Below, piece after piece: positions 6,603 to 50,503 of a stretch of DNA of 51,076 nt. The stretch's first letter is position 1. Each line of letters starts with the position of its first letter. The notes beneath the pieces were generated by a model. The model did no database searches. It was not told the origin of the DNA and worked only from the letters and a program-made list of their open reading frames with translations. Origin of the DNA: an uncultured Gammaproteobacteria bacterium (lineage in GTDB: Bacteria > Pseudomonadota > Gammaproteobacteria > Steroidobacterales > Rariloculaceae). The position numbers were made by a program, and so were the translations under genes. Location of the stretch: NCBI GenBank assembly GCA_913041665.1, contig CAJWKT010000002.1, positions 1-51,076 on the forward strand. The letters run 5' to 3'.

Positions 6603-6671
6603 CCGTTAACGACTGTTGGTGTCAATAGTATGCTGATTCTACGATGGCACGAATAGCGATACGAGCTTAAG

Positions 6672-7517: not shown

Positions 7518-7604
7518 AACAGAGTCCTCACTACTTTGTAATAATTATCTGTAACCTTCTTTTTGGAAATTAACAGACCATAGAAACCAGCCCTGAGAAT
7601 AGAA

Positions 7605-8021
7605 ATGGTTTTATCCAAACGAGAAATATGGCTTTTGATTGGAACCGAAACTATTTTTTTTGCCGCACTCGCCGCATGGGCCTTATGGTGGCTAGATCGC
7701 CTGCTGGAACCAACTGCAATCATAGGCGCTTTGTTGATAATAATTATAGGAGATATCGCCACAGTCCTCTTGATGCAACGGTTCGCACCAACCAAAATAA
7801 CGCTCTCGATCGGAGAAACATCTCATGTGCTTGGAAAAGTAACGGGGGGGTTCTGTGGAAGCGCAACGGGTACGGTGCTAGTGCGAGGTGAACAATGGAA
7901 GGCGTGTTACAAAGGTCCCGCGGAACTTGAGCCGGGGGACTCAGTCAGAATTTTATCGCGAACCGGACTGACTCTCCTGGTGGAAGTGGTAGAGCAGGAA
8001 AATCTCGCTTCCACTAGTTAG
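7605..8021 (+). CDS. NfeD-family membrane protein (short form)
   Basis: Hydrophobic helices at the N-terminus are followed by a C-terminal OB-like segment, GTVLVRGEQWKACYKGPAELEPGDSVRILSRTGLTLLVE. This matches NfeD C-termini. Confidence 0.7.
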   Translation: MVLSKREIWLLIGTETIFFAALAAWALWWLDRLLEPTAIIGALLIIIIGDIATVLLMQRFAPTKITLSIGETSHVLGKVTGGFCGSATGTVLVRGEQWKACYKGPAELEPGDSVRILSRTGLTLLVEVVEQENLASTS

Positions 8022-8782: not shown

Positions 8783-8785
8783 CTA

Positions 8786-9757: not shown

Positions 9758-9833
9758 ATTCGTTTTTTTCCGTAAATTTGATACTTCACGGGATCACTTC
9801 ATAGTCCAAAGGATAGGGCTGTTTTTCAATAGC

Positions 9834-10316
9834 CTACCGTTCTATTTTCGCGCTATCCCAATGTTCAGTGATCTTGCCATCCTCAAGCCGAAACATATCA
9901 AACCAGGTCGTCGTATACGTTTTGGTTTCATCATCTGGATGTGGATACTCCCTCACAAATGCCAACGTGACTAAGTCACCTTCAGCCGTAATCGAAACGA
10001 CCTGACCTTTTATCTCAGGTACTATCGGAAGAGGCTCTAATCTTCCGAAAAAACCTACAAAGGCCGCACGACCAGTGGGTACATTTGGATTGTGCTGAAT
10101 GTAACCCTCCGACATATATTTTTCCGCCAGTTCGACATGACGTCCTTCTAACACTTCACGCCAAAAATCGTAAACAAACCGCTTGTTGTGTGCCAGTTGA
10201 GGGTCGTCACTTTGTAAAAGCGCCTCCTGATCGGGCGCAGATGTGACCGGGAGTTGCGCCACTAGGGGCATTGCAGCAAATAGTAGTCCGAAAAAAATCA
10301 ATGTTCGCTTTGCCAT
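9834..10316 (-). CDS. Secreted NTF2/SnoaL-like fold protein
   Basis: The signal peptide is MAKRTLIFFGLLFAAMPLVAQ. The sequence NKRFVYDFWREVLEGRHVELAEKYMSEGYIQHNPNVPTGRAAF resembles SnoaL-like/NTF2 family proteins. Confidence 0.65.
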   Translation of the reverse strand: MAKRTLIFFGLLFAAMPLVAQLPVTSAPDQEALLQSDDPQLAHNKRFVYDFWREVLEGRHVELAEKYMSEGYIQHNPNVPTGRAAFVGFFGRLEPLPIVPEIKGQVVSITAEGDLVTLAFVREYPHPDDETKTYTTTWFDMFRLEDGKITEHWDSAKIER

Positions 10317-11244: not shown

Positions 11245-12150
11245 CTAACCTCGGGGGTGATGTATGCTGTGCAGCTGTTTCATCCGCTCCTGAGCTATAT
11301 GCGTATAAATCTGCGTGGTCGATACATCGCTATGGCCAAGCAAAAGTTGTACTACTCTCAAGTCGGCCCCATTGTTTAAAAGGTGAGTGGCAAAAGCATG
11401 GCGAACCGTATGCGGAGAAAGCCTCTTAGTAATGCCTGCTTTAACAGAATAGCGCTTAATTAGTTGCCAGAACGCTTGACGGGTCATGTGAGCCCCTCTG
11501 CGGGTAGGAAAGAGGTAATCTGTCTGACGATGCAGAAGAATTTTCCCCCTGTACTCATAAAGATATCTTTTAAGCCAACTCTGTGCCTCCTCACCGAGCG
11601 GGACTAACCGTTCACGGTCTCCTTTACCGATGATCCTGATTACCCCTTGATTAAGGTTAATCTGGTTCATCTTTAGATTGATCAATTCTGACACGCGAAC
11701 GCCTGTTGCATAGAGCACTTCAAGCATCGTTCTATCACGGTACCCCAACGGTCGGGAAATATCGGGCGCTTTTGACAGCGCATCTATTTCTGCTTCAGTA
11801 AGGGACTGTGGCAATGACCGACCGATTTTTGGCATCACGACCTGACTGGTGGGATCCTCCTCAATCATGTCCTCACGGAGAAGATAACGATAGAACCTGC
11901 GAAAACTTGAGAGTTGGCGCGCAGCAGATCGGGGCTTTAATCCGCCCGCAGCTCTCCATGCCATATAGTCCATAATTTCGGCCTTTCCGGCGCGGACCAT
12001 AGTAACTCCTTGCTTAAGAAAAAATTTATTTAATGACAGTAGATCTGCGCGATATGCGTCAAGCGTGTTCTTCGATAGACCGCGCTCCATCCAAACTGTA
12101 TCTAAAAACCGGTCAATTAGGGTTTCCGAATTGTCCTGAAATCCTGACAC
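11245..12150 (-). CDS. xerD: Tyrosine site-specific recombinase XerD
   Basis: The N-terminus LIDRFLDTVWMERGLSKNTLDAYRADL is XerD-like. The catalytic region contains ATGVRVSEL, HTVRHAFATHLLNNGADLRVVQLLLGHSDVSTTQIYTH (R-H-R-Y tetrad context). Confidence 0.9.
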   Translation of the reverse strand: MSGFQDNSETLIDRFLDTVWMERGLSKNTLDAYRADLLSLNKFFLKQGVTMVRAGKAEIMDYMAWRAAGGLKPRSAARQLSSFRRFYRYLLREDMIEEDPTSQVVMPKIGRSLPQSLTEAEIDALSKAPDISRPLGYRDRTMLEVLYATGVRVSELINLKMNQINLNQGVIRIIGKGDRERLVPLGEEAQSWLKRYLYEYRGKILLHRQTDYLFPTRRGAHMTRQAFWQLIKRYSVKAGITKRLSPHTVRHAFATHLLNNGADLRVVQLLLGHSDVSTTQIYTHIAQERMKQLHSIHHPRG

Positions 12151-22804: not shown

Positions 22805-24970
22805 TCAAAATAAATATTTAACCCCAATTCCAAATACGCGGGGCTCTCCATATTGATAATAGGATTCGTTAGTCCAGCCCTTTCGGGGGTCGTTGCCAAA
22901 ATAAAGGCCATGAATAGCATAATCCTTATTGGTTAGATTGCGGCCCCATATCTGTAATTCAGCTGCTCCCAGCCGATAGCGGAGACTTGCATTCATCAAT
23001 ACATAGCTATCGAGACCCGCCGTGTGATAATACCCAAAACGACTATTATCTTGTCCTTCAAGTTCTACCCTAAAATCAAGCTTTTCATTAAACGATATTT
23101 TCGTACCCAAATTAAATTGCCATGCGGGAGATTTAGCCTGATCGATGTTATTTCGGACAACAAAATCCCCTCTATCTAGATCAAATATGGTTATCTCTTT
23201 TATTTTTGTCTTGAGCCATCCAAGTGAACCAAATAACTCCGCTTGTGCTGAAAATTGATAACTTAGCTCTATCTCTACACCCGAAGTGTATCCATCAACG
23301 TTATCCAAAAAGCCTATCCATAAAAAATTTTTCCCATCCCACATCCATGATTCCAGCTGTGCATTATTCCGATCCATATGGAATAGAGCAGCACGAAAAA
23401 TGATTTGATCGTCAAAATAGATGCCCTTTATCCCAAGCTCTCTGTTGAGTAACGTCTCCGTAGCCACCTGGAGTCTAGGCCGCATGAATGCTTGAAACTC
23501 CGATCGCATCAGCGGTATGCTTGAGCTTGCAACCGTATTAACGCCCCCAGGCTTACTTCCGCGAGAAATTGTTGCGTAAAAAAATGAACTACCTATGGTT
23601 TGATAGGTCAGTGTCAACTCACCATTCCGAAGGGTATCGTCACTGACAGATTCAAAACTGTAGGTATCTCGATAGTTATCACCAAATTTTTCATAACGAA
23701 TCCCCGCAGCAAACTCGAGTCCCCGATTAATAGGAATCATTAGGTGGCTATAAATAGCACGCCTTTTGACTTCATAAAAACTGAAAAAATCTCCGTAGTA
23801 CTTGCGGTGCAGTTTTTCCTTTTTGCGTTCCGCGTACAAACCAATGACGTATTGCGCATCGGAAATAGGAAAATTTCCCGATAGACGCACGTCTAAAGAG
23901 AGGTCATTCCTCTTTCTCAGATAACTATCAGTATGGGAGAAAAAATCTGAAACTGGATCACAAAGCGTCCCGTCGCAGATACCGACAAACGTCCAGTCCT
24001 CGTCAAATCCATAATCAAGGTCGCTTTCCAACCAAGTTGCATTTGCTTGCAGGGTTGAGAATTCCCCAAGTTGCCACTCTGCCTCCCCTGCGAGCGCTAA
24101 ACTAGCCTGGCTGTCCCGTCCTGGTTGATCCGATAGTGTCTCTCGAGTGTTATCTAGCGAGAAGGCGTCGTAACCGTTTTTCCCATCGAAATAAAGTGCC
24201 GTTATATTGTACCGAGACCTTTCGCCGGGATTGATATGAAAAGTTCCGCGAACAGAGTTTTCATTGTGACCATCTGTGTCATCTCGATTAAGAAACGTGT
24301 TACTGATGTATCCCTGACTTTCATTGTGCTGAGCTGCTAAACGCGCGGTAACGATGTCACTCAGTGCTCCACTAATAACGCCATCTACATTCCAACTCCC
24401 ATAGTTTCCCGCACCGACCTCAATGTAACCTTCCAGTATTTCTGTAGGTCTCTTGCCGAGGATATTGACCATTCCACCTAATGCGCTGCCTCCGAAACGT
24501 GTTCCCTGAGGGCCACGGAGAATTTCTATCTGCTCTACATCGAATAGCATAGCTGAGTTAGCCGCGCCCCCTAGATTGATTCCATTCATGGTAATGCCAA
24601 TCGAGGGAAAATGTTTTGGGTCAACGAATTGCTCTAAATCACCAATCCCACGTACTTGCAGGAAGCGAGCTCGGGATGCGCCGCCAGAATAATTTATATT
24701 GGCCGAAGTATTTAGTACTGATTCAAGGTGTTGGGCTCCTCGACTCTCTATGCTCGCATCATCAATAACCGAAACGCTGGCCGAGGTACTCATCAAAGAA
24801 TTTTGATAAAACCCAGCTGTCACTATGATTTCTTCCAGGGGGGTCCGGTGCTCCAGCTCCTGAGCATTCAAAAGAACCGGGCTTAGCAACATTACAATCG
24901 CCACTAGCCTCATAAAGACAATGCCCATCCAACAGAATCTGGAATGACTTTTATGTCGAATCTCCTCCAT
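22805..24970 (-). CDS. TonB-dependent outer-membrane receptor
   Basis: The TonB-box/plug reads LEEIIVTAGF...IEILRGPQGTRFG. The long beta-barrel ends in the aromatic terminus GVKYLF. The true start is probably an internal Met (nt 24928 or 24913), giving signal peptide MRLVAIVMLLSPVLLNAQE. Confidence 0.9.
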   Translation of the reverse strand: MEEIRHKSHSRFCWMGIVFMRLVAIVMLLSPVLLNAQELEHRTPLEEIIVTAGFYQNSLMSTSASVSVIDDASIESRGAQHLESVLNTSANINYSGGASRARFLQVRGIGDLEQFVDPKHFPSIGITMNGINLGGAANSAMLFDVEQIEILRGPQGTRFGGSALGGMVNILGKRPTEILEGYIEVGAGNYGSWNVDGVISGALSDIVTARLAAQHNESQGYISNTFLNRDDTDGHNENSVRGTFHINPGERSRYNITALYFDGKNGYDAFSLDNTRETLSDQPGRDSQASLALAGEAEWQLGEFSTLQANATWLESDLDYGFDEDWTFVGICDGTLCDPVSDFFSHTDSYLRKRNDLSLDVRLSGNFPISDAQYVIGLYAERKKEKLHRKYYGDFFSFYEVKRRAIYSHLMIPINRGLEFAAGIRYEKFGDNYRDTYSFESVSDDTLRNGELTLTYQTIGSSFFYATISRGSKPGGVNTVASSSIPLMRSEFQAFMRPRLQVATETLLNRELGIKGIYFDDQIIFRAALFHMDRNNAQLESWMWDGKNFLWIGFLDNVDGYTSGVEIELSYQFSAQAELFGSLGWLKTKIKEITIFDLDRGDFVVRNNIDQAKSPAWQFNLGTKISFNEKLDFRVELEGQDNSRFGYYHTAGLDSYVLMNASLRYRLGAAELQIWGRNLTNKDYAIHGLYFGNDPRKGWTNESYYQYGEPRVFGIGVKYLF

Positions 24971-38839: not shown

Positions 38840-39562
38840 TTACTTCTGAGCAATCCGTTGACGCGCACTGCTATTTACCAGACTAAGTTCCGCCCGGCGC
38901 TCCATAGCTAAACCATCTAAATCGCTTTCGTCTGAGCGGGAAAATTGCTCGCCATAAGAATCCAGGACAATACGACCCGAAGGTACACCAGCACGAATTA
39001 AAGCATCTTGAACCGCTAATGCACGATCAGCGGAAAGTTGTGCGTTGTACTCTACATTTCCCCGAGCGTCGGCAAATCCCTCTACACGAATCAACATCCC
39101 ATCCATATTAGCCAGCAATTTAGCCAGCTGCTCAAACCAATCCTGATTGATTTTGTCGAGATCGCTTTCTCCTGTTCTAAACAGTACTTGAACGCTCAAC
39201 ATTTGCTGCAGCGTATTCTGCATTTCTGCTGTGCCTTTTAGTAGTTCTGACTCAAGCCTAATCATTTCTTGTTCGCGCGTTTTAATACCGGCGTTTAAAA
39301 TTTCAGCCTCGTCCTTGAGCGCTTCCCAACGCTGCTCGAATTCCAACTTAGCTGTTTGCTCTTTATAGAACCTGTCTCCCAGCCAACTACCGAGGGCTGC
39401 GCCTAAAATAGACCCAACCGGACCACCAACGGAACCACCAAGAACTGCCCCGGTGCCAACCCCTATGCTTTCTTGTCTAGAAGGCGATCCTATTTCGTCT
39501 GCTAAACCCAAATCACTGATAGCAATCGTGCAAATCACAGTTAACAAAATGTATTTCATCAT
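38840..39562 (-). CDS. OmpA-like peptidoglycan-binding protein with signal peptide, glycine-zipper segment and coiled coil
   Basis: The signal peptide is MMKYILLTVICTIAISDLGLA. The glycine zipper is GVGTGAVLGGSVGGPVGSILGAALGSWLG. A heptad-rich region is KLEFEQRWEALKDEAEILNAGIKTREQEMIRLESELLK. The OmpA_C motif is RVEGFADARGNVEYNAQLSADRALAVQDALIRAGV. A strong SD (GGAGGAG) precedes the ATG. Confidence 0.8.
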   Translation of the reverse strand: MMKYILLTVICTIAISDLGLADEIGSPSRQESIGVGTGAVLGGSVGGPVGSILGAALGSWLGDRFYKEQTAKLEFEQRWEALKDEAEILNAGIKTREQEMIRLESELLKGTAEMQNTLQQMLSVQVLFRTGESDLDKINQDWFEQLAKLLANMDGMLIRVEGFADARGNVEYNAQLSADRALAVQDALIRAGVPSGRIVLDSYGEQFSRSDESDLDGLAMERRAELSLVNSSARQRIAQK

Positions 39563-39683: not shown

Positions 39684-40688
39684 TCAACGGGCCCGGCGAT
39701 GAGGAAGCGCAACAAAGGTGCCTCCATTTCTTTGGCAAAGCGCCCGCATAAGAATGGCGAATCGAGCAGCGGTTAACATGTCACCAGTGACCTCGAAAAG
39801 CACCGGAAAAGCTACGGCATGGATCCGTACCCGGCGCTCACCCCTCTCATCAGCGCGATTGCGGCGATCCACCTCCCTTACTACCCCATTGATCGACCCG
39901 GATGAAAAATCATCACTGTAAACATACAAGCTCACTCTTTTTTCAGGATCGTAGAAGCTCTCTATAGCGGTCAAGATGCCTTCTCTGGGGCTGGAGTTGG
40001 AGAATGCGTTCCAATTTCTCAAGGCATCCATGATCGCTTCCCGCCTAGCAGGCGTATCCGGAATCCACTCATTGCGGTAACTTTTAAACATATATTCGCC
40101 CATATCATTCAAAACCTGTATTCCTTTCACCTCAGGATAAACCTCGAGTGTTTCTTGCATCTGTTTCTGGACTCTATCCCAAGCGTACTGACGCATACTC
40201 CCCGAAGTATCAATGATAAAAACGATGTATTCGCTATCCACAGGTATACCGCCTATGTTGTAATCATCTGGATCCGGGCGGTAATCAGCTAACAGTCGCT
40301 GCATCTCCTCAGTCAGCCGTTGCTTAGCTAGCGCAAGCTGGCCTTGCAGTTCCGTATTGATGTCAGCGTTATCTCCAGTAGCCAAAAACTCGGAACGAAT
40401 TCTTGAGAGTTGTTCCTGTAAACGGGAGAGCTGTAAATTTTCTGAATCTAATTGCGTCACAGTAGAAATCTGCTCGCGCTCAACGATCTCGGTTTCTCCA
40501 CGGAGATCATTCAGTTCCTCCTGATAACGCGTAATCAATTCTTCAAGCTCTACATGACTCTCCTCAAGACGGATAGGCTCAAAAATCTTTGTTAAGACAA
40601 GCAAGAGAATGATAGCCCCAAAGCCACAGCATATTACGTCTAAAAAAGAAAGATTAAGTGTCTCCGTGTCGCGATCTTTTTTCCTCAT
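39684..40688 (-). CDS. ExbD/TolR-like TM anchor + coiled coil + vWA (MIDAS) domain protein, paralogue 2
   Basis: I prefer the start at nt 40688 (MRKKDRDTETLNLSFLDVICCGFGAIILLLVL). It has a GAGGA SD and forms an ATGA overlap with the upstream stop. The TM helix carries Asp17, as in ExbD/TolR/MotB. A coiled coil spans about aa 40-135. The vWA MIDAS motif is YIVFIIDTSGSM. Confidence 0.75.
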   Translation of the reverse strand: MRKKDRDTETLNLSFLDVICCGFGAIILLLVLTKIFEPIRLEESHVELEELITRYQEELNDLRGETEIVEREQISTVTQLDSENLQLSRLQEQLSRIRSEFLATGDNADINTELQGQLALAKQRLTEEMQRLLADYRPDPDDYNIGGIPVDSEYIVFIIDTSGSMRQYAWDRVQKQMQETLEVYPEVKGIQVLNDMGEYMFKSYRNEWIPDTPARREAIMDALRNWNAFSNSSPREGILTAIESFYDPEKRVSLYVYSDDFSSGSINGVVREVDRRNRADERGERRVRIHAVAFPVLFEVTGDMLTAARFAILMRALCQRNGGTFVALPHRRAR

Positions 40689-41782
40689 GGCCAATCCTCT
40701 GAAGGTGCCATCATGGATCCACCAGTAGTTAGCGAGAGCTGCCAATAAGCCGGCGCGGCCAAAGGATCCCCCTCCATCGCATAGAGAATCACATTCACCG
40801 GAATATTCAGGGGCAGCCGGCGAACAGCTCGTTCAAAATGATTAACTCGCTCCCTACTAGTTACGCCTGCCTGCGCCGGTACAACCTCACCCATAGTTGG
40901 TAGGCCATCTACAAGCAGATACAAATTATCGGGCTTTGGGTCTAAGGTTCTAGCAACGTCCATTGCCGCATGCAGGCTAGTCGGGCCTTCTGGTGATGTA
41001 TCTTTAAGTACCTGAACCGCCGCATCTAATTGGGCGCCATTCTCAACGGTAAGCCAGCGCCCGCCGGTACCATCCAACAACGGCCAAGCTTCTTTGTTAA
41101 AAGCATAAATCTGAAATTGGATACCGGGCGGAATCTGGGTAGTAAGCCAGTCCACCGTATTGACTACTTGTTGCCATTTGGGTGCCTGCAGTCTTTGCTC
41201 CACTGGCATATTGCGCCGCCGAATAATATTTACGATGGTACGATCCAGCATGCTTGTAGAAGCGTCTACTAAAATCAGTACGCGCTGCCCGCCCATTCGC
41301 AAGCCTGTTAAATACTGTCTATTCCCGTCACCCGTGAAACTACGAATACGGTTCCCCGCATCTTCCGGCGTAACGCTAGCCGCCGACAGCCTTTCATTTT
41401 CTTCTCTTAGATCATCAAGCTCTGACCTTAGTCGCTCGATAGCTTCTTTGCGAGTGCTTGTCTCTTCAGTTACAGAATTTAGCTCATTTTCTGTACTAAG
41501 AATTTCTTTCATAACCTCATCTCGCATTCCGGCCAGCACAGCCATATCTTTGATAAGCTTGGCTAGCTCATCCTTAAGTTGAACTAGATTTTTCTTTCCT
41601 GAAAGTACTCTTAACTCCATGCGGTCTACTTCACTACCAAGATCATCGAGCTCAAGCTTACTGCGCTCAGAGACATTGGCGTTAATCACCATGAAGAATA
41701 AAATGACTGCACCGAATCCACAGGTCATGGCGTCCAGAAAAGATAAGGAAAATACGTTTATCTTTTTACGAGCCACAATCAT
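40685..41782 (-). CDS. ExbD/TolR-like TM anchor + coiled coil + vWA (MIDAS) domain protein, paralogue 1
   Basis: The N-terminus is MIVARKKINVFSLSFLDAMTCGFGAVILFFMV. Compare ExbD INVTPFIDVMLVLLIIFMV. Asp17 lies in the TM helix. A coiled coil spans about aa 45-135. The vWA MIDAS motif is RVLILVDASTSM. Confidence 0.75.
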   Translation of the reverse strand: MIVARKKINVFSLSFLDAMTCGFGAVILFFMVINANVSERSKLELDDLGSEVDRMELRVLSGKKNLVQLKDELAKLIKDMAVLAGMRDEVMKEILSTENELNSVTEETSTRKEAIERLRSELDDLREENERLSAASVTPEDAGNRIRSFTGDGNRQYLTGLRMGGQRVLILVDASTSMLDRTIVNIIRRRNMPVEQRLQAPKWQQVVNTVDWLTTQIPPGIQFQIYAFNKEAWPLLDGTGGRWLTVENGAQLDAAVQVLKDTSPEGPTSLHAAMDVARTLDPKPDNLYLLVDGLPTMGEVVPAQAGVTSRERVNHFERAVRRLPLNIPVNVILYAMEGDPLAAPAYWQLSLTTGGSMMAPSEDWP

Positions 41783-43148
41783 TTCCTACGCTTATTACCC
41801 ACAACTCCTCACCAGGTGAACCGATACGAATGACATCTGCGGGACGCAGTGTGGTTTCAGCCGAAGCTCTCTTTTCGTTTACAAATGTCCCGTGACGACT
41901 GTGATCAATAAGCTTGACCTCACCATCACGCAAGACCAATTCACAATGTGAGCCAGAAACACCACTATGGTCTCCCTCAAGCACGATAGAGCGACGCTCT
42001 TTATCTTTAGTACGGCCAATTGATAGCCCCTCAGCATCCACGGGATATGCAATTCCCTTATAAACCACATGACTCGAACTGGCGTCTGGAGTTTTCTCTG
42101 AATCCTGAAAAACGTTTTTATCAACTGCAACCTGAGCCTGTTCACGCCATGGCACCCGCTTTAGCAGTTTGACCTGACCGCTTTTAGACTCAGCGGCTGG
42201 CATAGCTAACGCACCCATCACGGGTGCATCGGGTCCTAAACTCAACACAAGCGCATCATCTAAACGTTGTAATTCAGTCATTAGCCCAGGTAGTAAACCA
42301 AGATGGTGGGAAACCTGTACAACGAGACCAGCCCCACCTTGCCTAACCTGAGCTACTAGTTGCACCAGTGCACGATAAAAACCTGATGCGGCTGCCAACA
42401 GCTGCTCCCGCCGAACTTCAATCCGATGAATATCTTGGTAATGCTCCAGTTCGAATTCACATACATCTTTCTCTTGTATCGACTGTAGCCAACCCGGTAG
42501 GTAATCATATATAAGCTGCTCAGTATCAGCTCGATGAAGAGGGTCAAAGCGTGTTGCAAGAACGAAAAGCTCTGAAAACCGCTGGGCCCAAAGATCCATA
42601 ACACTTATCAGGCCAGTATTTTCCAGACCAATTTCTTGTAACGCCATTACGCTATCGCTCTGCTCTAATGGCGTCACAGAGACTCGGTGTAAGCCAACAT
42701 CTAGGTGAACAAGCTGCCGGCCCGGGTACGGTCGTGCGCTGACAGCAGCGGCTGAGCTTAACATCCCACTCACCCGAATTCCGATCTCTTGAGTTAACCC
42801 AAGTAATACACCCAATTGCTCGCGCGTGTAGTGATTCGGCACTATCAGAACAACATCGTCTGATTTATCCGCAATTTGGGTCCACAACGTTTTGAGCTGA
42901 GCATGAGCAAGTTCCGAGGCACTATCAATCCCTTCTACGCCCGCGGTATTACTGCCTACGCTCAAATTAGTCCAATAACGGCTACTCACCTGACTAGGCT
43001 TAACACGTGCTTGTCGAAGCGCCTCAGTGCCAGTGATAATGCGCCCATCCTCTACTAGCGCATAACCAGGCTCTCTAGCCAATACTTCCCCTTCGTGGGC
43101 AACCACCAGGCTTGCGTCATTGATGTCGATTGCGAGCGTGGCCATCAA
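41766..43148 (-). CDS. Degenerate Hsp70/actin-fold domain fused to a C-terminal FHA domain
   Basis: The N-terminal 350 aa follow the Hsp70 nucleotide-binding-domain motif order with degraded loops. These are LAIDINDASLVVAH, VVLIVPNHYTREQLGVLLGLTQEIGIRVSGMLSSAAAVS, LVHLDVGLHRVSV and VVQVSHHLGLLPGL. The C-terminal FHA is canonical: SIGRT...VSGSHCEL...LIDHSRHGTFVN...LRPADVIRIG. Confidence 0.7.
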   Translation of the reverse strand: MMATLAIDINDASLVVAHEGEVLAREPGYALVEDGRIITGTEALRQARVKPSQVSSRYWTNLSVGSNTAGVEGIDSASELAHAQLKTLWTQIADKSDDVVLIVPNHYTREQLGVLLGLTQEIGIRVSGMLSSAAAVSARPYPGRQLVHLDVGLHRVSVTPLEQSDSVMALQEIGLENTGLISVMDLWAQRFSELFVLATRFDPLHRADTEQLIYDYLPGWLQSIQEKDVCEFELEHYQDIHRIEVRREQLLAAASGFYRALVQLVAQVRQGGAGLVVQVSHHLGLLPGLMTELQRLDDALVLSLGPDAPVMGALAMPAAESKSGQVKLLKRVPWREQAQVAVDKNVFQDSEKTPDASSSHVVYKGIAYPVDAEGLSIGRTKDKERRSIVLEGDHSGVSGSHCELVLRDGEVKLIDHSRHGTFVNEKRASAETTLRPADVIRIGSPGEELWVISVGNDCGS

Positions 43149-43164
43149 TCAACTCTTGGAAATT

Positions 43165-43968
43165 TCAAGCTCCCCTAGTCTGCATGTGGCGAATTAAATT
43201 GTGGTCGACGTGAGTTTGAGCATCAAAAATGAAACGTTCCTGTAAAAGCTGTAGCTGATGGACAAGAAACATCACAACAATAGAAATCAAAAGCGCAATA
43301 AAAGTGGAGTTAAATGCGGTACCCAAGCTCTGGGTTACCCCCGCGATATCTCCATCTACAGCGCGGTGTGCCTGACCCAAAGCCTCACCGATTCCGCGCA
43401 CTGTTCCAATAAACCCCACAGAAGGTATAGCCCAAGCGATATAACGAATCATGGAAAGCTCGGACTCCAATCGTTCACCTTCCGACTCACACAAATTAGT
43501 TGCCACCGAGGATACATCTTGCACGTTACGTGTGGACCCAAACCGTTCAAGCGAAGAAAGCATGACCCTAGGAAGCAACATCTCTCTCAAACGCTCAGGA
43601 AGAGATTGAATGTTGCGAGCATACTCCCTTGTATCCTCCGGAAGAATGCGCACGCCCTCTTGAACTCGGACAAATTCTTGCTGCAAAAGAGCTCGTTCCT
43701 TAAGCGCCCGAAACGCTTTATAGCCCATAATGCAGAACGCCCAAATCATCAAAATAAAACAAGATTCCTGCTCGAAGTCCCGAATAATCACCCACACAGA
43801 GCGCTCTGGCGTGTAGTTTTCTTCTTGCTCAATACGTAGTATCTGCTCGGCCGCCACAGCAGCCGCTTTAGGCCTGACCACCGTAACGTAGACCGCATGC
43901 ACCACGATGATTGCGATAATTAGCGCAAACACTTGATAAACAAACTCAGCTGGAAAACGACGTTTCAT
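43165..43968 (-). CDS. MotA/TolQ/ExbB-family proton-channel protein
   Basis: 267 aa. Two N-terminal TM segments and a cytoplasmic loop are followed by the family signature IPSVGFIGTVRGIGEALG. Compare ExbB/TolQ P-lGL-GTV-GI. A final helix pair is AFNSTFIALLISIVVMFLV. A GGAGG SD is present. Confidence 0.8.
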   Translation of the reverse strand: MKRRFPAEFVYQVFALIIAIIVVHAVYVTVVRPKAAAVAAEQILRIEQEENYTPERSVWVIIRDFEQESCFILMIWAFCIMGYKAFRALKERALLQQEFVRVQEGVRILPEDTREYARNIQSLPERLREMLLPRVMLSSLERFGSTRNVQDVSSVATNLCESEGERLESELSMIRYIAWAIPSVGFIGTVRGIGEALGQAHRAVDGDIAGVTQSLGTAFNSTFIALLISIVVMFLVHQLQLLQERFIFDAQTHVDHNLIRHMQTRGA

Positions 43969-43992: not shown

Positions 43993-44208
43993 CTAAATAT
44001 CTATAGGAAAAATAACTTCTTCATCAGCTGCAATCTCTTCCGAGGGAATAAAGACATCAGTGTTTGGCGGGGTCCTTTCTGACTCAGGCTCCACCCTCGG
44101 GGGAGGTATCGCCTCCTCCACTTCTTGCTCATCTTCCTGGCCTAGCCCCAATGACAATAGACTCAGCAAGCTCCCCAGCACAAACACCCTAATCTTAAAA
44201 TTGATCAT
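43993..44208 (-). CDS. Small secreted acidic, proline-containing protein (71 aa)
   Basis: The signal-like N-terminus is MINFKIRVFVLGSLLSLLSLGLG. It is followed by an acidic/Pro-rich tail, QEDEQEVEEAIPPPRVEPESERTPPNTDVFIPSEE. It sits in a 290-nt slot between two operon genes. I see no obvious SD, so coding status is uncertain. Confidence 0.4.
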   Translation of the reverse strand: MINFKIRVFVLGSLLSLLSLGLGQEDEQEVEEAIPPPRVEPESERTPPNTDVFIPSEEIAADEEVIFPIDI

Positions 44209-44252: not shown

Positions 44253-46718
44253 TCATTCCAGATTACGCGCAATACGAAAACCGAGGTCCTCTCGGGCACT
44301 ACCATTGTAGTCTCGGTAGGCAAGCCGAAGATTCGTCAGGGTAGCGCTAGTCCAGCTAGAACCTCGAACCACATGTAAACTACCAATTTCAGGGCCCAGA
44401 GGATCCTTGACGACTCCCTCTACGCCGATAGTCGCAATTTCATAGTAATCCTGCATCCATTCTGAAACATTGCCACCGAGATCAAAAAAACCAAGGAGAC
44501 TGGGCCCGAAACTCCCTACTGGCGCTGCTACCTGAAAGCTATCGTTATAAGTGATTAGTGTCGTTCTTAACAACTGAGAGGCACTAACATCAGCATAATT
44601 GCCGGTGCGATCCGGGGGAGGGAGCTCAGCTCCCCAAGGATAGATTAGAGCTTCCTCCCTTTCTGCAAATCGCGAAGCCCAGGCCCATTCAGCCTCTGTG
44701 GGCAAACGATAACCGTTGCGCACTGGACGTACCAATACCCGAGTTCCCTGCCGCTCCTCATATGCAGGCTGAAATCCGTCAGTAATGCTGAGCCAGTTAA
44801 GAAATTGCGCAACTTCTCCCCAAGTCACCCTCACCACAGGCTGATCATCTTCATCTAAAGAAACACCCGAAAAAGATCCCGAATTGTGTTCAGGTTTGAA
44901 CTTCCTGAATTCCGCGTTACTGACTTCCCGAGCACCTAGATAGAAAGCTGTACTTAACCTAACTGTGCGCATTGACTCATTTGAGCGGCGCCCTTGTTCG
45001 CGCCGCGATGAACCCATAATGAATTCACCTGGCAAAACAAGCAATAAATCCTGGCCTAAACTGGTCTCAACAACCTTTGGGTAACCGCTGCCAGTCGTGA
45101 CATCCAATTCCTCCAACTTAAACTCTAAGATTTGAGGAAAACCAGGACGAGGCGTTATCTCCACAGACTGGCTCGCAAAACCAGGATAACCAATTTCCAG
45201 CTGATGACTTATTGCCATAAGCATTAAACGAGTAGGTGTATTACCTTGGCGCTCACCATCAACCCAAATAGCTGCACCAGTTGGTTCGCTATTGATGCCT
45301 ACCTCACCCAATTGTGCAACTAGGTTGATATCCAGCTCCTGTTGACTATCAGCTGCAACGGACAATACCTGCATGACGGGATCGTAGCCTGGCTTAGTGA
45401 GTCCAATCTGATGATCTCGATCCGGAAGCAAGCCTAAAGTGAGGGGGGTTCGACCGCGATACTTTCCATCAACACTCACGACCGCATCAGCTGGATTGCT
45501 TGTAAGCTCCAATTGACCATCAGCCGGAGAAAGCATCACTAGCGGTAGCTCTAGAGGTTGGTCTGCATTCACTAAAATTGTGCTTTTCCAAATATTGAAC
45601 CCCTCGAGTCTTGCCTCAATTCGTCGTTCTCCAGCTGCTAGCTCCATGACTAAAGGCGTCCCTCCAAGGGACACGTCGTCTACAAAAACCCGTGCACTAA
45701 CCGGTTCAGTGATCAAAGTCACTGGTGACCAATTCGGCGTGAGCACGGCAGACATATTTTGTCTTTCACCTCCCCCAATGACCTCAAATTCTCTGATTTC
45801 TGATAAATATCGATCAGCCATAAACTCAAATCGGCGCAATCCAGTAGAAACCTCTGCATCCACTAGCGGCGCACTACCGAGCAGCTGGCCATCCACGTAG
45901 ACATCTGTATCTAAATTTGAATCAACCGAAACACTAATTAGCCCTGGTAGTCTCTTTAAAGAAAGTTCAAACGATTGATCCGGAGACAGTCCGACGTCGA
46001 TTTCAGTCTCCAAAGTGTGATATCCCAAAAGTGTAGCACTAATGCGATGCGTGCCGAAGCGAAGCAAATAGCGATCTGCAAGCTGGAGTTTGAAAAATGT
46101 ACCGGGAAGACTAACGGCTTCAGGTTGGGGCGTAAACACGAGCTGAACAGACTTAGCTGTAAATGCAAACCATCCGACAACAGCTAGCGTAACTAATCCA
46201 CTCCCCACTCCTAAAAACCTCTTGCTAGGTCTAAAAAAATGACTATCAGTTTGCTCTTTTAGCCTAGGACGAAACGCAACTGGTGCAATCTCAATATCAC
46301 CAAGGTCATCCGATTCCCTTGCTAGTTCCTCTAGGTCCGGCGGCACCGTATCACTACCCGTAACCTGAACATCAATCATAAGGCTCAAACGATTGCTCGA
46401 AAGCGTGCAGCTTAATCGAGCTGTGTCCAGAGCAATAATATCTCCATCCCGTAGCCAACGTGACCCAGATAATAGCTCTCCATTTATGCGAAGCCCGTTA
46501 GTATCTCGAGCTGGCAAAACGAAAAAAGCTTCATCTAACATGTCTATTTGTAAGGAACCGGAAACGTTGTTTAATCTCACATCGTCGGAAGGATTACCCC
46601 CTAACGAAACCGGAAGATGGTTAGCAGAAAAATATTTTTCTTGTCCACCTTCGGCCAAACACAACACCCATTTTTTACCATTACCGATCATTACGACTAA
46701 TTGATCCGTTCCACACAA
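44253..46718 (-). CDS. FHA - TM - PEGA repeats - FGE-sulfatase(SUMF1)-like domain protein
   Basis: A divergent N-terminal FHA spans aa 10-105 (LPVSLGG...TNGLRINGELL...LRDGDIIAL). One TM segment spans aa 168-187. There are four clear PEGA-like repeats plus one degenerate (VYVDGQLLGSAPL, VFVDDVSLGGTPL, VSVDGKYRGRTPL, IWVDGERQGNTPT). The C-terminal FGE-sulfatase motifs are VRVTWGEVAQFLNWLS, GYRLPTEAEWAWAS, GNVSEWMQD and VVRGSSW. The start may instead be M10 (nt 46691), 5 nt after the upstream stop. Confidence 0.8.
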   Translation of the reverse strand: MCGTDQLVVMIGNGKKWVLCLAEGGQEKYFSANHLPVSLGGNPSDDVRLNNVSGSLQIDMLDEAFFVLPARDTNGLRINGELLSGSRWLRDGDIIALDTARLSCTLSSNRLSLMIDVQVTGSDTVPPDLEELARESDDLGDIEIAPVAFRPRLKEQTDSHFFRPSKRFLGVGSGLVTLAVVGWFAFTAKSVQLVFTPQPEAVSLPGTFFKLQLADRYLLRFGTHRISATLLGYHTLETEIDVGLSPDQSFELSLKRLPGLISVSVDSNLDTDVYVDGQLLGSAPLVDAEVSTGLRRFEFMADRYLSEIREFEVIGGGERQNMSAVLTPNWSPVTLITEPVSARVFVDDVSLGGTPLVMELAAGERRIEARLEGFNIWKSTILVNADQPLELPLVMLSPADGQLELTSNPADAVVSVDGKYRGRTPLTLGLLPDRDHQIGLTKPGYDPVMQVLSVAADSQQELDINLVAQLGEVGINSEPTGAAIWVDGERQGNTPTRLMLMAISHQLEIGYPGFASQSVEITPRPGFPQILEFKLEELDVTTGSGYPKVVETSLGQDLLLVLPGEFIMGSSRREQGRRSNESMRTVRLSTAFYLGAREVSNAEFRKFKPEHNSGSFSGVSLDEDDQPVVRVTWGEVAQFLNWLSITDGFQPAYEERQGTRVLVRPVRNGYRLPTEAEWAWASRFAEREEALIYPWGAELPPPDRTGNYADVSASQLLRTTLITYNDSFQVAAPVGSFGPSLLGFFDLGGNVSEWMQDYYEIATIGVEGVVKDPLGPEIGSLHVVRGSSWTSATLTNLRLAYRDYNGSAREDLGFRIARNLE

Positions 46719-48217
46719 AAAATTTCAATCGGGCTTAGCGTACTCCCCGGCAATACTTCAAAAACGACACGCACATCTCGGTACCCAGCCCGGCTTCCCA
46801 GGGCTGTATATGGTCCAGGACGAATCTGCACGTGGTGGGTAATGAAGCTGCCTAGAGAGCCTACACGGTACAAAGTTACATTGGTGAGCTCATCAGAACG
46901 CAGTTCCACATCGATTGGCGTGGAGGCTAAACGGACCAGCCTGCCAAGCTCAGCAATCTGTCCGTTCAATCGTGGCCCCCTTCCATCTATTCCACGCGCA
47001 TCCTCCAAAAGAATGCCTGCATCTTTCAAAATTTGGTCGGCAAAAAGAACATCTGGGTTTCGGAAAAGACCTTCAAATTTGGCATCCAAGTCAGTCCTGG
47101 CCCGGGCGCGAGAAAGTCCTATCTTGGCAAATTCAAGGGAATCATCAGAATTTAATGCGAGAAGATATTGCTGAATAGCACGGTCCCATAACTCTCTTTT
47201 CTCAAAGGCAGTGGCCCGGACCTGCGCAAGAGCAATCTGCTCCAACCTTATACCCTGGTCTGCCTGAATCAATCCATCTAAAGCTTCCAAAGAATCAGGG
47301 CGCATCTTCAGTGCATCAGTAAAAAATTGATGGGCCTCTTCAAATTCCTCTTCGGCCAAAGCATTCAGTGCCACAGAAACCAGTGAGTCAAATCTAGCAT
47401 CGGCGATGCGACGAGTCGCGTTGGCTACAGCCAATCTGGCAGGGATCCAAAGCGAGTCAAGAATCGCCGCATTACGGTAAAGCTCTAGGGCACTAACGAG
47501 GTCACCGTTCTGGTCTCGCTCTGCACCCTGCTCCATATGAGCCAACACGTTGGGTAATATTTGTGCTCTTTCTAATCCACTCTGACTATCAACATGGTCC
47601 GCTTCTATACGTAAAACTAACTGAAACTGCTCCGCCGCTAGAGATGGATTGCCGGCAGCAAGGGCCTCATTACCTGCTTCTAAAGCTCGGTCAATAATGT
47701 TTTTAGACCTAGCAAGCAAAGAAATTCCTAAATCGAGCGCTGCTTGGTAGCTAGGCACAGCATCATAAAAGGCATCTGCTAAAAAAGCGTCATCGCCATC
47801 CCGAAACAATGTCTGATAAAGATCCCAATCCTCACCAGCCCAATTTGCTGCACCCTGCGCCTCTAATAGGCCCTGCTGTTGCAATAGTTCAGCTAGCAGC
47901 GCCTCGGCCTTATCGCGCAAAATGTCCAGTTCTTCGGGTGACATTACCAAAACCCCTGAATTTGACTCAGAAGGAGGTGCAGATTGCTCTACCATTTCGG
48001 TAGTGGGTACCTGCTCTGCTACCCAACTAGGCAGCAAAAAGATCACTCCCAATGCCAAGGACGCCAAAACGATTAATGCTGAAACAACTAATTTAAAGCT
48101 ATAGTTCCGATCCTTGCTATCCAACGACGTGGACGCAACAAAATTTTCCTTTATACCGGACCTGACCGGAACAATGGTTTCATCATGTTCTGGTTGGTTA
48201 GAATTCTGTTTTTTCAC
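46697..48217 (-). CDS. Single-pass membrane protein with TPR-like helical repeats and a C-terminal beta (PEGA-like) domain
   Basis: It has a GTG start with a GGAG SD. A cytoplasmic tail of about 40 aa precedes the TM segment FKLVVSALIVLASLALGVIFLL. The long Ala/Leu-rich helical repeat region contains AGNEALAAGNPSLAAEQFQLVLRIEADH and EEAHQFFTDALKMRPDSLEAL. The C-terminus reads IRPGPYTALGSRAGYRDVRVVFEV. Confidence 0.7.
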   Translation of the reverse strand: MKKQNSNQPEHDETIVPVRSGIKENFVASTSLDSKDRNYSFKLVVSALIVLASLALGVIFLLPSWVAEQVPTTEMVEQSAPPSESNSGVLVMSPEELDILRDKAEALLAELLQQQGLLEAQGAANWAGEDWDLYQTLFRDGDDAFLADAFYDAVPSYQAALDLGISLLARSKNIIDRALEAGNEALAAGNPSLAAEQFQLVLRIEADHVDSQSGLERAQILPNVLAHMEQGAERDQNGDLVSALELYRNAAILDSLWIPARLAVANATRRIADARFDSLVSVALNALAEEEFEEAHQFFTDALKMRPDSLEALDGLIQADQGIRLEQIALAQVRATAFEKRELWDRAIQQYLLALNSDDSLEFAKIGLSRARARTDLDAKFEGLFRNPDVLFADQILKDAGILLEDARGIDGRGPRLNGQIAELGRLVRLASTPIDVELRSDELTNVTLYRVGSLGSFITHHVQIRPGPYTALGSRAGYRDVRVVFEVLPGSTLSPIEIFCVERIN

Positions 48218-48230
48218 AACTCCGCCGATG

Positions 48231-49121
48231 CTATCGCCAAAATGCTATAACTGATTCTAAGACATCTAAAAAAACATGCATGCTCTTTGGGCGGCGACTT
48301 GGGTCTGGTCCCAGCGTTGCGTGAACCAATTCAGCCAGCTCAGAAAATGCCGAACTACTGTCCGATGGGCCTAAGGGGAGTGCTGGGGGCCCTGGACACA
48401 CCAACGAGGGACTAACACCGAATGGTAAACAGCCTGTAATGAGTTCATAGAGCAACGCCGCAAACGCATACATATCATCAGCCACTGCTGGCACCTCACC
48501 CCGGCGGTGACCCGGGCTCTGATAAGCCGGTGTCCCTCCACCTTTTAAAGTTCGGCAATTTAGAGGCTCCGCCAAGGCAAAATCTACTAGGTACGCTCCC
48601 TGGTTACTATCAAAGAGAACATTGCGTGGCTTAACGTCAAGATGGACCATGCCTTGATTGTGAATATATTCCAATGCACTAGCCAAATCTCTAGCCGCAC
48701 CCGCCCAACAACGAGGATGGGCTCCGCATAGAGATACCAAATCCCCTTCACCTAAATATTCCGTTATTAATGCTGGGCTCCCGCCCAGAGTAATCAAGTC
48801 AATCACTACTGATACGCAAGGATGATTCAGAGAATTGAGAATTTCGAACTCACGACGAATCAATTCTTGGGCACCAAAGTCTCGGATCACATCCGATCTT
48901 GGTAGTTTGATAGCCACGACACCCCCATCCGGAGCTTCTGCCCTCCATACTTGTGACATACCACCAGCCCCGAGAAATGCAATGAGACGAAACCCTCCTG
49001 ATAAAATACTACCTGGTAGAAGGACCTCCTGATGATGGGTGTTTCTCAGAATATCGGCCGAAACTACATTAGCAAAGCCTAGTTCATTCTGGTTAATAGT
49101 ACGCTTATAAATAGTACCCAT
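48231..49121 (-). CDS. Soluble Hanks-type Ser/Thr protein kinase (non-RD, DFA variant)
   Basis: The Gly loop is LGAGGMSQVW and the catalytic Lys is in VVAIKLPR. The catalytic loop is HLDVKPRNVLF (HRD changed to HLD). The metal loop is DFA instead of DFG. The P+1 region is GTPAYQSPG. There is no TM segment. Confidence 0.85.
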   Translation of the reverse strand: MGTIYKRTINQNELGFANVVSADILRNTHHQEVLLPGSILSGGFRLIAFLGAGGMSQVWRAEAPDGGVVAIKLPRSDVIRDFGAQELIRREFEILNSLNHPCVSVVIDLITLGGSPALITEYLGEGDLVSLCGAHPRCWAGAARDLASALEYIHNQGMVHLDVKPRNVLFDSNQGAYLVDFALAEPLNCRTLKGGGTPAYQSPGHRRGEVPAVADDMYAFAALLYELITGCLPFGVSPSLVCPGPPALPLGPSDSSSAFSELAELVHATLGPDPSRRPKSMHVFLDVLESVIAFWR

Positions 49122-49159: not shown

Positions 49160-50503
49160 TCAGGTGTCAGTCGCTACACCTGTATCGACCGCCTCCAAAT
49201 TCATGTCCTCGTTTTGGCCCACTGATTCGCTACCTGACGTAGTCTCGGGAACTGCGATAAGTTCCAATTCACTTGGTGGGGGTTCCGTATATATCGACAT
49301 ATCTGCAGGCAGAAGCCCAGTCTCTGAGACAAATAGATCTTTTAATAATTGACGCCATTCCTGATATTGCACATCTGCCGTTCCCGTCAGACGATGTTGT
49401 GTACCCTCAATCTCTACCACCATCGGCCTGACTTCATCATCGAAGCTGCTAGAAAGCTCTTCGAGGGTTTCTTCGTGTAAACGCTTCTCCTGCTTTCGGA
49501 TAGCACCAGTCTTAATCATATCCATCCCCATGTACATCAAGGCATCCCGCACCATACGATCTGAGAAACCATCACCATCACTTTGGCTGCCATAGACTAC
49601 GGAAGCCACCACTGTTGCTATACCAAGACCGGTCCGCCACCGAGTGGATCGGTGCAATTCCTTTATGGCAATTGCCTCTTCACGTGAAAATTGGCGCCAT
49701 CCATCATAAGACTCAATGGAATCTTGATAGAACTGATCGTAATGCTGGTTCAAGGTTTCCACAAACAAATGTTCTCGCTCTCGAATCCGCTGGGTCCGAC
49801 CAAACATTGGATCTCCTTCAGCAGGTAAGCGCCTAAGCTCATATTCCCCCCGATTGCTCTGAACAACGTGCTCTCCAAAAACCTCCGGACTTAGCTCTCC
49901 CGCAAAACGCAGCTGGGCTATAGACCTGATTTTCTCGGCCTCGTTGACAGCCAACTTCCCCTGTACCGTTGCCAAGTCGTTTGCGATAGAGCTAAAAACA
50001 TCCTGATAAGGATCCAAACCCCCAAATCTTTGCCGGTTGTAGGCCCCGGCTGCAGTACCCATACCATATTCACCATCCAACCAAACGCGACCGGAAGCAT
50101 CAACGGCTTTCACATACAGCAAAAACTCATCCCCATCGGATCTCAGAATCTCAGCCATAACATTGACATCTGCCGCAGTGGAGGCTGAGGGCGTAACCCA
50201 TACCGCACCCCAATGACCACTCTTCTGCAGCGTGTCTCTCAGGGTCACTGCCATATAACGAGCCTCGGTTCGGCGAATGTAAATGAAAGTGCCATCTCTA
50301 ATAAGCTCCTCCAAAATCTCTTTATCCACCTCACCTTCGGGAACCCCCGAACCAAAAACAGCTATACCAACGTCGAGCAGCTGCTCTTCCGGAATAGACC
50401 GGGTGGCAGGTACCAAATCGACCGAGTGAGCTAAGCGAACCTCATTACTTGTGCATCCCGAAATAAGTCCCGCTACCACAAAAAGAAAATAAATCACCCG
50501 CAT
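49160..50503 (-). CDS. Lipoprotein of unknown function (447 aa)
   Basis: The lipobox is in MRVIYFLFVVAGLISGC. I recognise no domain. There is an internal hydrophobic stretch (GLGIATVVASVVYG) and an acidic Ser/Thr-rich C-terminal tail. Confidence 0.7.
   Translation of the reverse strand: MRVIYFLFVVAGLISGCTSNEVRLAHSVDLVPATRSIPEEQLLDVGIAVFGSGVPEGEVDKEILEELIRDGTFIYIRRTEARYMAVTLRDTLQKSGHWGAVWVTPSASTAADVNVMAEILRSDGDEFLLYVKAVDASGRVWLDGEYGMGTAAGAYNRQRFGGLDPYQDVFSSIANDLATVQGKLAVNEAEKIRSIAQLRFAGELSPEVFGEHVVQSNRGEYELRRLPAEGDPMFGRTQRIREREHLFVETLNQHYDQFYQDSIESYDGWRQFSREEAIAIKELHRSTRWRTGLGIATVVASVVYGSQSDGDGFSDRMVRDALMYMGMDMIKTGAIRKQEKRLHEETLEELSSSFDDEVRPMVVEIEGTQHRLTGTADVQYQEWRQLLKDLFVSETGLLPADMSIYTEPPPSELELIAVPETTSGSESVGQNEDMNLEAVDTGVATDT

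Follow-up and report, generated by a model that had tools for sequence, protein, structure and literature searches.

Two tandem vWA proteins with an Asp-bearing transmembrane helix as probable inner subunits of a MotA/ExbB-type motor in an uncultured gammaproteobacterium

Two tandem genes, here called A and B, lie on the minus strand of contig CAJWKT010000002.1 (NCBI GenBank assembly GCA_913041665.1), which derives from an uncultured gammaproteobacterium of the Rariloculaceae. The whole stretch of DNA analysed, hereafter the window, comprises positions 1 to 51,076 of this contig and is 51,076 nucleotides (nt) long. Each of the two proteins has a short basic tail, a single transmembrane (TM) helix with an Asp, a predicted helical stalk and a C-terminal von Willebrand factor A (vWA) domain with a metal-ion-dependent adhesion site (MIDAS), and a gene of the MotA/TolQ/ExbB family is positioned upstream of the pair. 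A previous sequence-only reading, made without database searches, had interpreted A and B as stator subunits, possibly forming a heterodimeric plunger inside the pentamer of this channel protein. The features that the analysis relies on are the following, with the residues of A and B counted from ATG and lengths in amino acids (aa).

40685-41782, minus strand: gene A, an open reading frame (ORF) of 365 aa from ATG 41782, or of 363 aa from the probable start GTG 41776
39684-40688, minus strand: gene B, an ORF of 334 aa from ATG 40688, a paralogue of A
40685-40688, minus strand: ATGA stop/start overlap of A and B, read directly from the sequence
41684-41752, minus strand: single TM helix of A with Asp17, residues ~11-33 (motif SFLDxxxCGFG; the most hydrophobic 19-mer is residues 15-33)
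40584-40655, minus strand: single TM helix of B with Asp17, residues ~12-35 (the most hydrophobic 19-mer is residues 18-36)
41384-41683, minus strand: helical stalk of A, ~100 residues (34-133), a helix in the AlphaFold2 model and a probable coiled coil
40284-40583, minus strand: helical stalk of B, residues 36-135, helices in the AlphaFold2 model
40688-41284, minus strand: vWA domain of A, residues 167-365 (Foldseek probability 1.00)
39708-40229, minus strand: vWA domain of B, residues 154-327 (Foldseek probability 1.00; Pfam VWA 24.3 bits, barely over the cut-off)
41252-41266, minus strand: DxSxS of the MIDAS of A, D173-x-S175-x-S177 (DASTS, residues 173-177), completed by T268 and D292
40197-40211, minus strand: DxSxS of the MIDAS of B, D160-x-S162-x-S164 (DTSGS, residues 160-164), completed by S232 and D259
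43165-43968, minus strand: MotA/TolQ/ExbB-family channel protein of 267 aa (Pfam MotA_ExbB), a proposed pentamer, here called the partner

Gene A can be read from two start codons. An AGGA is located 1 nt before ATG 41782 versus 7 nt before GTG 41776, and the close homologues of A are 363 aa long with the N-terminus MARK... Because of this Shine-Dalgarno (SD) spacing and of the homologue length, GTG 41776 is favoured and is probably the start of A, and the Asp of A would therefore be residue 15 instead of residue 17. Gene B, which the mechanical ORF list extends upstream to a TTG at 40745, has a GAGGA 6 nt upstream of its ATG. Both ORFs, the ATGA overlap and the GAGGA SD had already been recognised in the sequence-only reading, and all of them are present in the sequence. 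The two proteins are full-length paralogues (BLASTP, E 3e-9, 21% identity). For comparison, a set of 84 loci was assembled from a one-genome-per-species scan (80 loci), three metagenome loci and the window. In this set, A-type and B-type genes are adjacent in 84/84 loci and mostly translationally coupled: the stop of A and the start of B overlap by 4 nt in 37/82 genomes and by 1 nt in 12/82, and most of the others are spaced by no more than 25 nt.

Only one strongly hydrophobic segment was found per protein, in A and in B alike. The N-termini of A and B are MIVARKKINVFSLSFLDAMTCGFGAVILFFMVI and MRKKDRDTETLNLSFLDVICCGFGAIILLLVL, respectively, and they share a pattern in which a basic tail is followed by SFLD(A/V)xxCGFGA(V/I)IL. 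The Asp at residue 17, which had been pointed out before in both proteins, is borne out by reading the codons GAC 41732-41734 (A) and GAC 40638-40640 (B), apart from the shift in the numbering of A that the GTG start brings. This Asp is kept in orthologues, in 84/84 A-type and 82/82 B-type proteins of the scorable species-level genomes. In the alignment of 82 A-type relatives, with identities as low as 32%, F15, D17 and G24 do not vary and the stalk is barely conserved, while D17, C21 and G24 are each found in 78/78 sequences of the B alignment. To ~32% identity, relatives retain the motif (S/A)F(L/I)D...CGFG almost without variation, and the helix behind it is poorly conserved. Among 150 representatives of the family, the Asp was present in all full-length A-type proteins whose N-terminus is recognisable (100 of 101 pattern matches), and also in 13 B-type proteins. 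The TM helices of A and B, FSLSFLDAMTCGFGAVILFFMVI and LNLSFLDVICCGFGAIILLLVL, contain no His, so the SHLS/His motif of the TolA/TonB-type helices is absent from both.

The charges that flank the TM helix are distributed unevenly. The flank before it carries 3.4 (A) or 3.9 (B) K+R per ~10 residues, and the next 15 residues after it are acidic, across 84 and 82 genomes, respectively. In some relatives, moreover, the vWA part is preceded by a signal peptide or by a BlaR1/M56 domain. Because of this charge distribution and of these relatives, A and B are predicted to be N-in, C-out, with the vWA heads outside the cytoplasm, and the exported and membrane-anchored fusion relatives thus agree with the orientation that had been expected for a stator subunit.

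AlphaFold2 models of A and B were built as single chains with family alignments. The model of A (mean predicted local distance difference test score, pLDDT, 89) has an unbroken helix over residues 10-133 (pLDDT >90), a low-confidence linker and an α/β domain over residues 167-365, and the model of B (mean pLDDT 80) has helices over residues 12-104 and 108-135 and an α/β domain over residues 154-327. The coiled coil of about 90 residues that had been described from the letters is retained as a long helix behind the TM segment, which measures about 100 residues in the models, and its coiled-coil nature is graded as probable; coiled-coil families were the sole library matches of the stalk stretch of A. 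The C-terminal domains of both proteins match the vWA fold, as had been proposed. Searches with Foldseek against the Protein Data Bank (PDB) returned, with a probability of 1.00 for both heads, CLCA1 (6pyo), BatB (3ibs), ITIH1 (6fpy), 4fx5, the anthrax-toxin receptors and the integrin I domains. The best matches of A include the BatB vWA structures 3ibs and 4jdu, and those of B include ITIH1, alpha2delta and 4fx5. The comparison of folds was needed because sequence-profile searches of the PDB were too weak, with the alignments A2 and A3 yielding coiled-coil noise and marginal vWA matches only. Likewise, Pfam, NCBIfam and PADLOC gave weak vWA matches and coiled-coil noise for A and B, with no match to ExbD/TolR/MotB or to a defence system.

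The DxSxS motifs of the two heads (DASTS and DTSGS) are intact, as had been noted, and a conserved distal Thr/Ser and Asp come with each of them. In A-type proteins D173, S175, S177 and D292 are conserved in 83/83 sequences and T268 is Thr or Ser in 82/83; in B-type proteins D160, S162, S164, S232 and D259 are all conserved in 78/78. Both heads thus appear to have a complete MIDAS, and metal binding is predicted for them. The three residues DWP form the very C-terminus of all 84 A-type proteins (40688-40696, minus strand, in the window), with D in 82/83 and W and P in 83/83 aligned sequences, unlike the variable C-termini of the B-type proteins. The DWP of A may be a docking motif.

The family is large. 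More than 6400 homologues of A and at least 8000 homologues of B were found, and the named relatives carry only the labels 'VWA domain-containing protein' or 'hypothetical'. Among 1.84 billion cluster representatives, a profile search gave 2979 clusters at E<=1e-3 and 491 at E<=1e-30; at 50% identity, the family amounts to about 3000 clusters. The carriers are marine and soil Gammaproteobacteria, Desulfobacterales and Acidobacteriota, with Pseudoalteromonas, Microbulbifer and Thalassomonas among the cultured ones. In some members both types of head are joined in one chain, either as a signal peptide followed by a B-type and an A-type vWA domain (P0242, P0280, P0319, P0340 and P0388) or as a BlaR1/Peptidase_M56 domain followed by an A-type and a B-type vWA domain (P0257, P0268, P0274 and P0286). 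The Asp helix and the stalk are both absent from these A+B fusion proteins. The fusions provide 'Rosetta-stone' evidence, which suggests that A-type and B-type heads work as a pair outside the cytoplasm.

The partner matches PF01618 MotA_ExbB with an E-value of 2e-13 and 50.6 bits (cut-off 22.9). Its gene ends 1383 nt upstream of the start of A, with an FHA-domain gene between them, in accordance with the distance of about 1.4 kb given earlier. Because the partner scores under the equivalog cut-offs of the NCBIfam TolQ, ExbB and MotA models, it is, on these profile scores, a separate subfamily of the MotA/ExbB/TolQ family. Alignment with the Escherichia coli proteins places T189 at TolQ T145/ExbB T148, T222 at TolQ T178/ExbB T181/MotA T209, and P182 at MotA P173. 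Of the partner homologues from the loci, P182, G185, T189 and T222 are each conserved in 75/75. A MotA-family gene was detected with the family hidden Markov model in 79/84 loci; of the five loci without one, three are short contigs. In four further loci (L007, L008, L050 and L082) the MotA-like gene has been relocated directly after B and still lies within the operon. Between its first two hydrophobic segments, the partner has a loop of ~38 residues with an acidic patch (D64, E66, Q67 and E68, residues 64-68) that is kept in 72-75 of 75 homologues and for which E. coli TolQ and ExbB have no equivalent.

To our knowledge, all characterised pentamers of the MotA/ExbB/TolQ type need an inner dimer. 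Family scans of the operon, of the loci L001-L003 and of the whole window found no TM subunit of the ExbD/TolR/MotB type. A tblastn search of all loci with E. coli TolR, ExbD, MotB, TolQ, ExbB and MotA missed even the MotA-like genes and is thus uninformative on the absence of ExbD. Since A and B are the sole candidates in the operon, where no ExbD/TolR/MotB-type gene is present, they are read as the inner subunits. In our view, A and B likely make up the central 'axle' of a motor of the 5:2 type (here 5:1:1) that is driven by protons, each of them supplying one subunit, with the protein at 43165-43968 as the ring. Because of the conservation of the Asp, the fold, the topology and the partner gene, this reading, which the sequence-only reading had already put forward in part as a possibility, is well supported as an interpretation, and the pore residues of the partner also agree with it. 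None of the three outcomes that would have spoken against it, namely a cytoplasmic vWA part, the lack of a structural match to vWA or an Asp that varies among orthologues, was observed.

For pentamer insertion, stoichiometry, ion coupling, the ligand and the use of the force, we infer the following. One N-in Asp helix from each of A and B would enter the pore of the pentamer, and D17 of both would face the conserved Thr ring (T189 and T222) of the partner. Through a cycle of Asp protonation, the flow of protons would drive relative rotation in the manner of MotAB, ExbBD and TolQR. Beyond the membrane, the two chains would run on as a two-stranded helical stalk of ~100 residues, or ~15 nm, and end in a paired A/B vWA head in the periplasm. 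Because both heads have a complete MIDAS, the sites would be expected to hold a binding partner via a metal-bridged acidic residue. The head could anchor the unit, like the peptidoglycan-binding domain of MotB, pull a target, like TolA/TonB, or sense a ligand, at which the M56 fusions hint.

A class of 'TPH-vWA' proteins has been described in silico only (Mol Biol Evol, June 2025, PMC12204202), in which a vWA domain is combined with a TM Asp and a dimeric core of a 5:2 motor is proposed. According to that paper, these proteins are mostly heterologous pairs, tightly co-occur with tolQ homologues without tolR/exbD, have no SHLS motif and contain a trans-pore helix that resembles that of TolR/ExbD and has the conserved Asp, and in AlphaFold3 models a TolQ-like pentamer encloses the two Asp residues with its Thr ring (PMC12204202). 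As far as that description goes, the A/B pair is alike in the Asp helix, the vWA fold, the heterologous pairing, the tolQ-like linkage without tolR/exbD, the missing SHLS and the occurrence mostly in Proteobacteria. The earlier statement that no characterised stator subunit carries a vWA head is still literally true, but its novelty has been overtaken by this in-silico proposal. In the literature beyond PMC12204202 we found no further description of this class and no experiments. The neighbours (FHA proteins, kinase, PEGA/FGE protein, lipoprotein and small acidic protein), the A+B fusions and the DWP terminus were found here and are not mentioned in the accessible portions of the TPH-vWA paper. 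New here are the A+B head fusions, the small secreted protein with its C-terminal motif and the extended operon, which is conserved and includes parts of a phospho-signalling kind.

As far as we know, all characterised 5:2 ion-driven motors (MotAB, ExbBD, TolQR, GldLM and ZorAB) have an inner dimer with a periplasmic domain of its own. The likeness of A and B to TolR/ExbD lies in one N-in TM helix that follows a basic tail, with the Asp ~6 residues into the hydrophobic stretch (TolR D23, ExbD D25), and in a partner of the MotA_ExbB family that keeps the matching Thr residues. In contrast to TolR/ExbD, A and B have a ~100-residue helix and a vWA domain instead of the ExbD/TolR periplasmic domain; they are expected as a heterodimer of paralogues and not as a homodimer, and no separate TolA/TonB-type transducer is evident. 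A TM Asp is shared with the inner dimers of the flagellar and Zorya stator-type units (MotB, PomB and ZorB), in the same layout as MotB D32, and the partner has four TM segments, like MotA. The periplasmic part of MotB/ZorB anchors the unit to the wall, and an OmpA-like protein is encoded beside B in close relatives, whereas A and B are without the OmpA-like peptidoglycan-binding domain of MotB and have a MIDAS vWA head in its place. GldLM/PorLM is a 5:2 motor with an inner dimer that reaches far across the periplasm, and it works with the non-catalytic GldK/PorK of the FGE-sulfatase fold. The FGE domain of the 821-aa protein of the operon best matches GldK, far under the cut-off, but GldM has neither a TM Asp nor a vWA domain, and no other type IX secretion genes are found here. 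In Myxococcus xanthus, AglRQS consists of the TolQ-like AglR and two different TolR-like subunits, AglQ and AglS. AglRQS and the present system are alike in that a motor is encoded with two non-identical inner subunits, and they differ in that AglQ/AglS are without a stalk or a vWA head.

Some other known systems were considered and rejected. Zorya was discarded because ZorA matches only at E~0.01 and ZorB only via the OmpA domain of the downstream protein. The vWA-MoxR ternary conflict systems (eLife 2020, PMC7159879) were set aside, as there is no MotA/TolQ context in the paper and no MoxR here. Membership in a Bat aerotolerance operon was not borne out, since neither the operon nor L001-L003 encode a MoxR AAA+ ATPase or a DUF58 protein.

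The operon to which A and B belong is conserved and comprises 8 to 11 genes. On the minus strand of the window, the gene order is a partial ORF at the edge, the lipoprotein, the kinase, the TPR protein, the PEGA/FGE protein, the small protein, the MotA-like partner, the FHA protein, A, B and the OmpA-like protein, and the members in addition to A, B and the partner are the following.

49160-50503, minus strand: predicted lipoprotein of 447 aa with an LISGC lipobox, of no known family, syntenic in most loci with enough flank
48231-49121, minus strand: Ser/Thr protein kinase of 296 aa (Pfam Pkinase 9.7e-28)
46697-48217, minus strand: TM protein of 506 aa with weak TPR matches, syntenic in most loci
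44253-46718, minus strand: membrane protein of 821 aa with a weak N-terminal FHA match, a TM segment, PEGA repeats (3.2e-38) and an FGE-sulfatase-like domain (2.2e-38)
43993-44208, minus strand: small secreted acidic protein of 71 aa with the C-terminal motif PSEEIAADEEVIFPIDI
41766-43148, minus strand: cytoplasmic protein of 460 aa with a C-terminal FHA domain (Pfam FHA 6.9e-13), whose stop overlaps the start of A, syntenic in most loci
38840-39562, minus strand: exported protein of 240 aa with a Gly-zipper, a coiled coil and an OmpA-like peptidoglycan-binding domain (Pfam OmpA 3e-16)

The syntenic core consists of the lipoprotein, the TPR protein, the PEGA/FGE protein, the small protein, the MotA-like protein, the FHA protein, A and B, and it was seen in Gammaproteobacteria, Desulfobacterales, Acidobacteriota and a metagenome-assembled genome labelled Phenylobacterium. 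The kinase and OmpA-like genes occur in part of the loci only; the majority of the distant loci have no kinase but retain MotA, A and B, and the OmpA-like gene follows B in closer relatives only. For the OmpA-like protein, the NCBIfam models PdsO (6.8e-36) and Pal (1.2e-15) match below their cut-offs. A profile search of the PDB gave no relative of the lipoprotein. In the 821-aa protein, the top NCBIfam match is GldK/PorK (8.6e-26), well under the model cut-off. The stretch RGSSWTSATLTNLRLAYR occupies what we take to be the site of the two catalytic Cys of FGE. Because this Cys pair is replaced, the FGE-like domain is probably non-catalytic, like GldK/PorK. The profile search with the 460-aa protein matched FHA domains in the PDB, and its N-terminal ~340 aa gave only marginal matches to the nucleotide-binding domain of Hsp70/DnaK (E 0.05-0.4); this part may be a divergent actin/Hsp70-like domain. 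R200, D202, P203, E210 and Q211 of the 460-aa protein are invariant in 40 homologues.

The 71-aa protein has a signal peptide, a variable acidic Pro-rich linker and the C-terminus P[ST]E.[IV]..D..[VI].[FY]P.DI-COOH. When a strict pattern was applied, 64/84 loci had this C-terminal motif on the operon strand and 0 had it on the opposite one. The small gene always stands behind the PEGA/FGE gene, even where the MotA gene has moved. Its acidic C-terminus is a candidate ligand for the MIDAS heads. The FHA proteins and the Ser/Thr kinase of the operon would exert control by threonine phosphorylation on the cytoplasmic side. A more speculative extension, which we hold to be conceivable but doubtful, takes the whole cluster as one hitherto unrecognised trans-envelope machine under phospho-control, in which a 5:2 motor with a heterodimeric axle would seize a dedicated ligand with its paired MIDAS heads and exert mechanical work on the wall or the outer membrane; the ligand could then be the small-protein peptide ...PSEEIxxDxxVxFPVDI. 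Such a function is not anticipated in the published TPH-vWA note (PMC12204202).

Outside the operon, positions 1-38600 of the window have the appearance of ordinary chromosome and contain no tol, exb or mot genes. They encode an ECF-type sigma factor, amidohydrolases, a DsbC-like protein, a XerC/D-type recombinase (11245-12150), an acetyl-CoA synthetase-like enzyme, a TonB-dependent receptor (22805-24970), an NMN transporter and the biosynthesis of proline and branched-chain amino acids, and genes of the biotin-synthesis type adjoin the operon.

Several observations weigh against the motor with A and B as its axle. No Pfam model of ExbD, TolR or MotB matches A or B of the window (E<=0.1), and none of these ranks within the 25 families that the 82 A-type members match most often (E<=10). 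Because no model matches and the defining periplasmic domains are absent, A and B are, as judged by sequence, not members of the ExbD/TolR (PF02472) or MotB families, and the likeness lies in the design of the TM helix. The earlier claim that the N-termini mirror those of ExbD/TolR holds for the Asp-anchored pattern and its depth in the membrane, but not as a family-level match. One B-type representative, P0353, has Ser at the Asp position. Two loci with ample flank, L006 and L074, have an A/B pair without a MotA-family gene nearby. The A+B vWA pair is also found on signal transducers of the BlaR1/M56 type, which could mean ligand sensing and not force transmission. The identity of A and B with the TPH-vWA class, whose seed is from Idiomarina loihiensis, is by description only (PMC12204202). 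The available text and supplements contain no vWA seed sequences, and no Idiomarina protein was among the best 120 matches of the Pseudoalteromonas denitrificans homologue. Locus L074 is from Peristeroidobacter soli, where the pair region spans 6377-10120 and a gene for a NIF-type phosphatase is located upstream of A.

One alternative sees in A and B no more than periplasmic vWA adaptors with a membrane anchor, of the BatA/BatB kind, which neither enter the MotA-like channel nor couple to ion flow, with the TM helix serving for anchoring and dimerisation and the MotA-like protein working alone or with another partner. The BatB structures 3ibs and 4jdu among the top Foldseek matches of A would fit such adaptors, as would the TM region that the ExbD/TolR/MotB models leave unmatched and the two loci L006 and L074. 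However, an invariant Asp and CGFG in a single-pass helix are unexpected for a passive anchor, the characterised pentamers of this family need an inner dimer, for which only A and B qualify in the operon, the linkage of MotA, A and B persists through rearrangement of the gene order, and the Bat partners, MoxR ATPase and DUF58, are absent. We therefore regard plain adaptors as unlikely.

In another alternative, the A/B pair is mainly a periplasmic ligand sensor, in which binding at the MIDAS is relayed via the TM helices, possibly with the MotA-like protein as a partner in signalling instead of a motor, to the FHA proteins and the kinase. The system would in that case serve phospho-signalling and not generate force. 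The fusion of the A+B vWA pair to the BlaR1/Peptidase_M56 signal-transducer scaffold points in this direction, together with the two FHA-domain proteins and the Ser/Thr kinase within the operon and the NIF-type phosphatase that adjoins the stand-alone pair in L074. Against it, the strict conservation of the ion-path residues of the MotA-like protein would be needless for a mere scaffold, and most of the distant loci lack the kinase while MotA, A and B are kept. Sensing and force transduction can also coexist. A sensor as the main function appears quite improbable to us.

Finally, vWA domains co-occur with FHA domains and kinases in some cytoplasmic systems, and the stalk and vWA domain could accordingly be placed in the cytoplasm (N-out), acting with the cytoplasmic FHA proteins and without an ExbD-type function, but this is very hard to reconcile with the positive-inside rule, which is obeyed across 84 and 82 genomes, with the homologous vWA pairs behind cleavable signal peptides (P0242, P0280, P0319, P0340 and P0388) and with the several exported partners encoded in the operon.

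The core idea of a vWA-headed motor has already been published, and the value of the present analysis lies in its extension and in the testability of a widespread, uncharacterised class of motors. The operon context supplies candidate regulators and ligands, namely the FHA proteins, the kinase, the non-catalytic FGE/PEGA protein and the acidic peptide, making an orphan prediction testable. If the reading of A and B as axle subunits is true, the family would comprise a motor with a heterodimeric axle that ends in integrin-like, metal-dependent binding heads. Such an axle would let each Asp be mutated separately, which bears directly on the way in which alternating protonation drives rotation.

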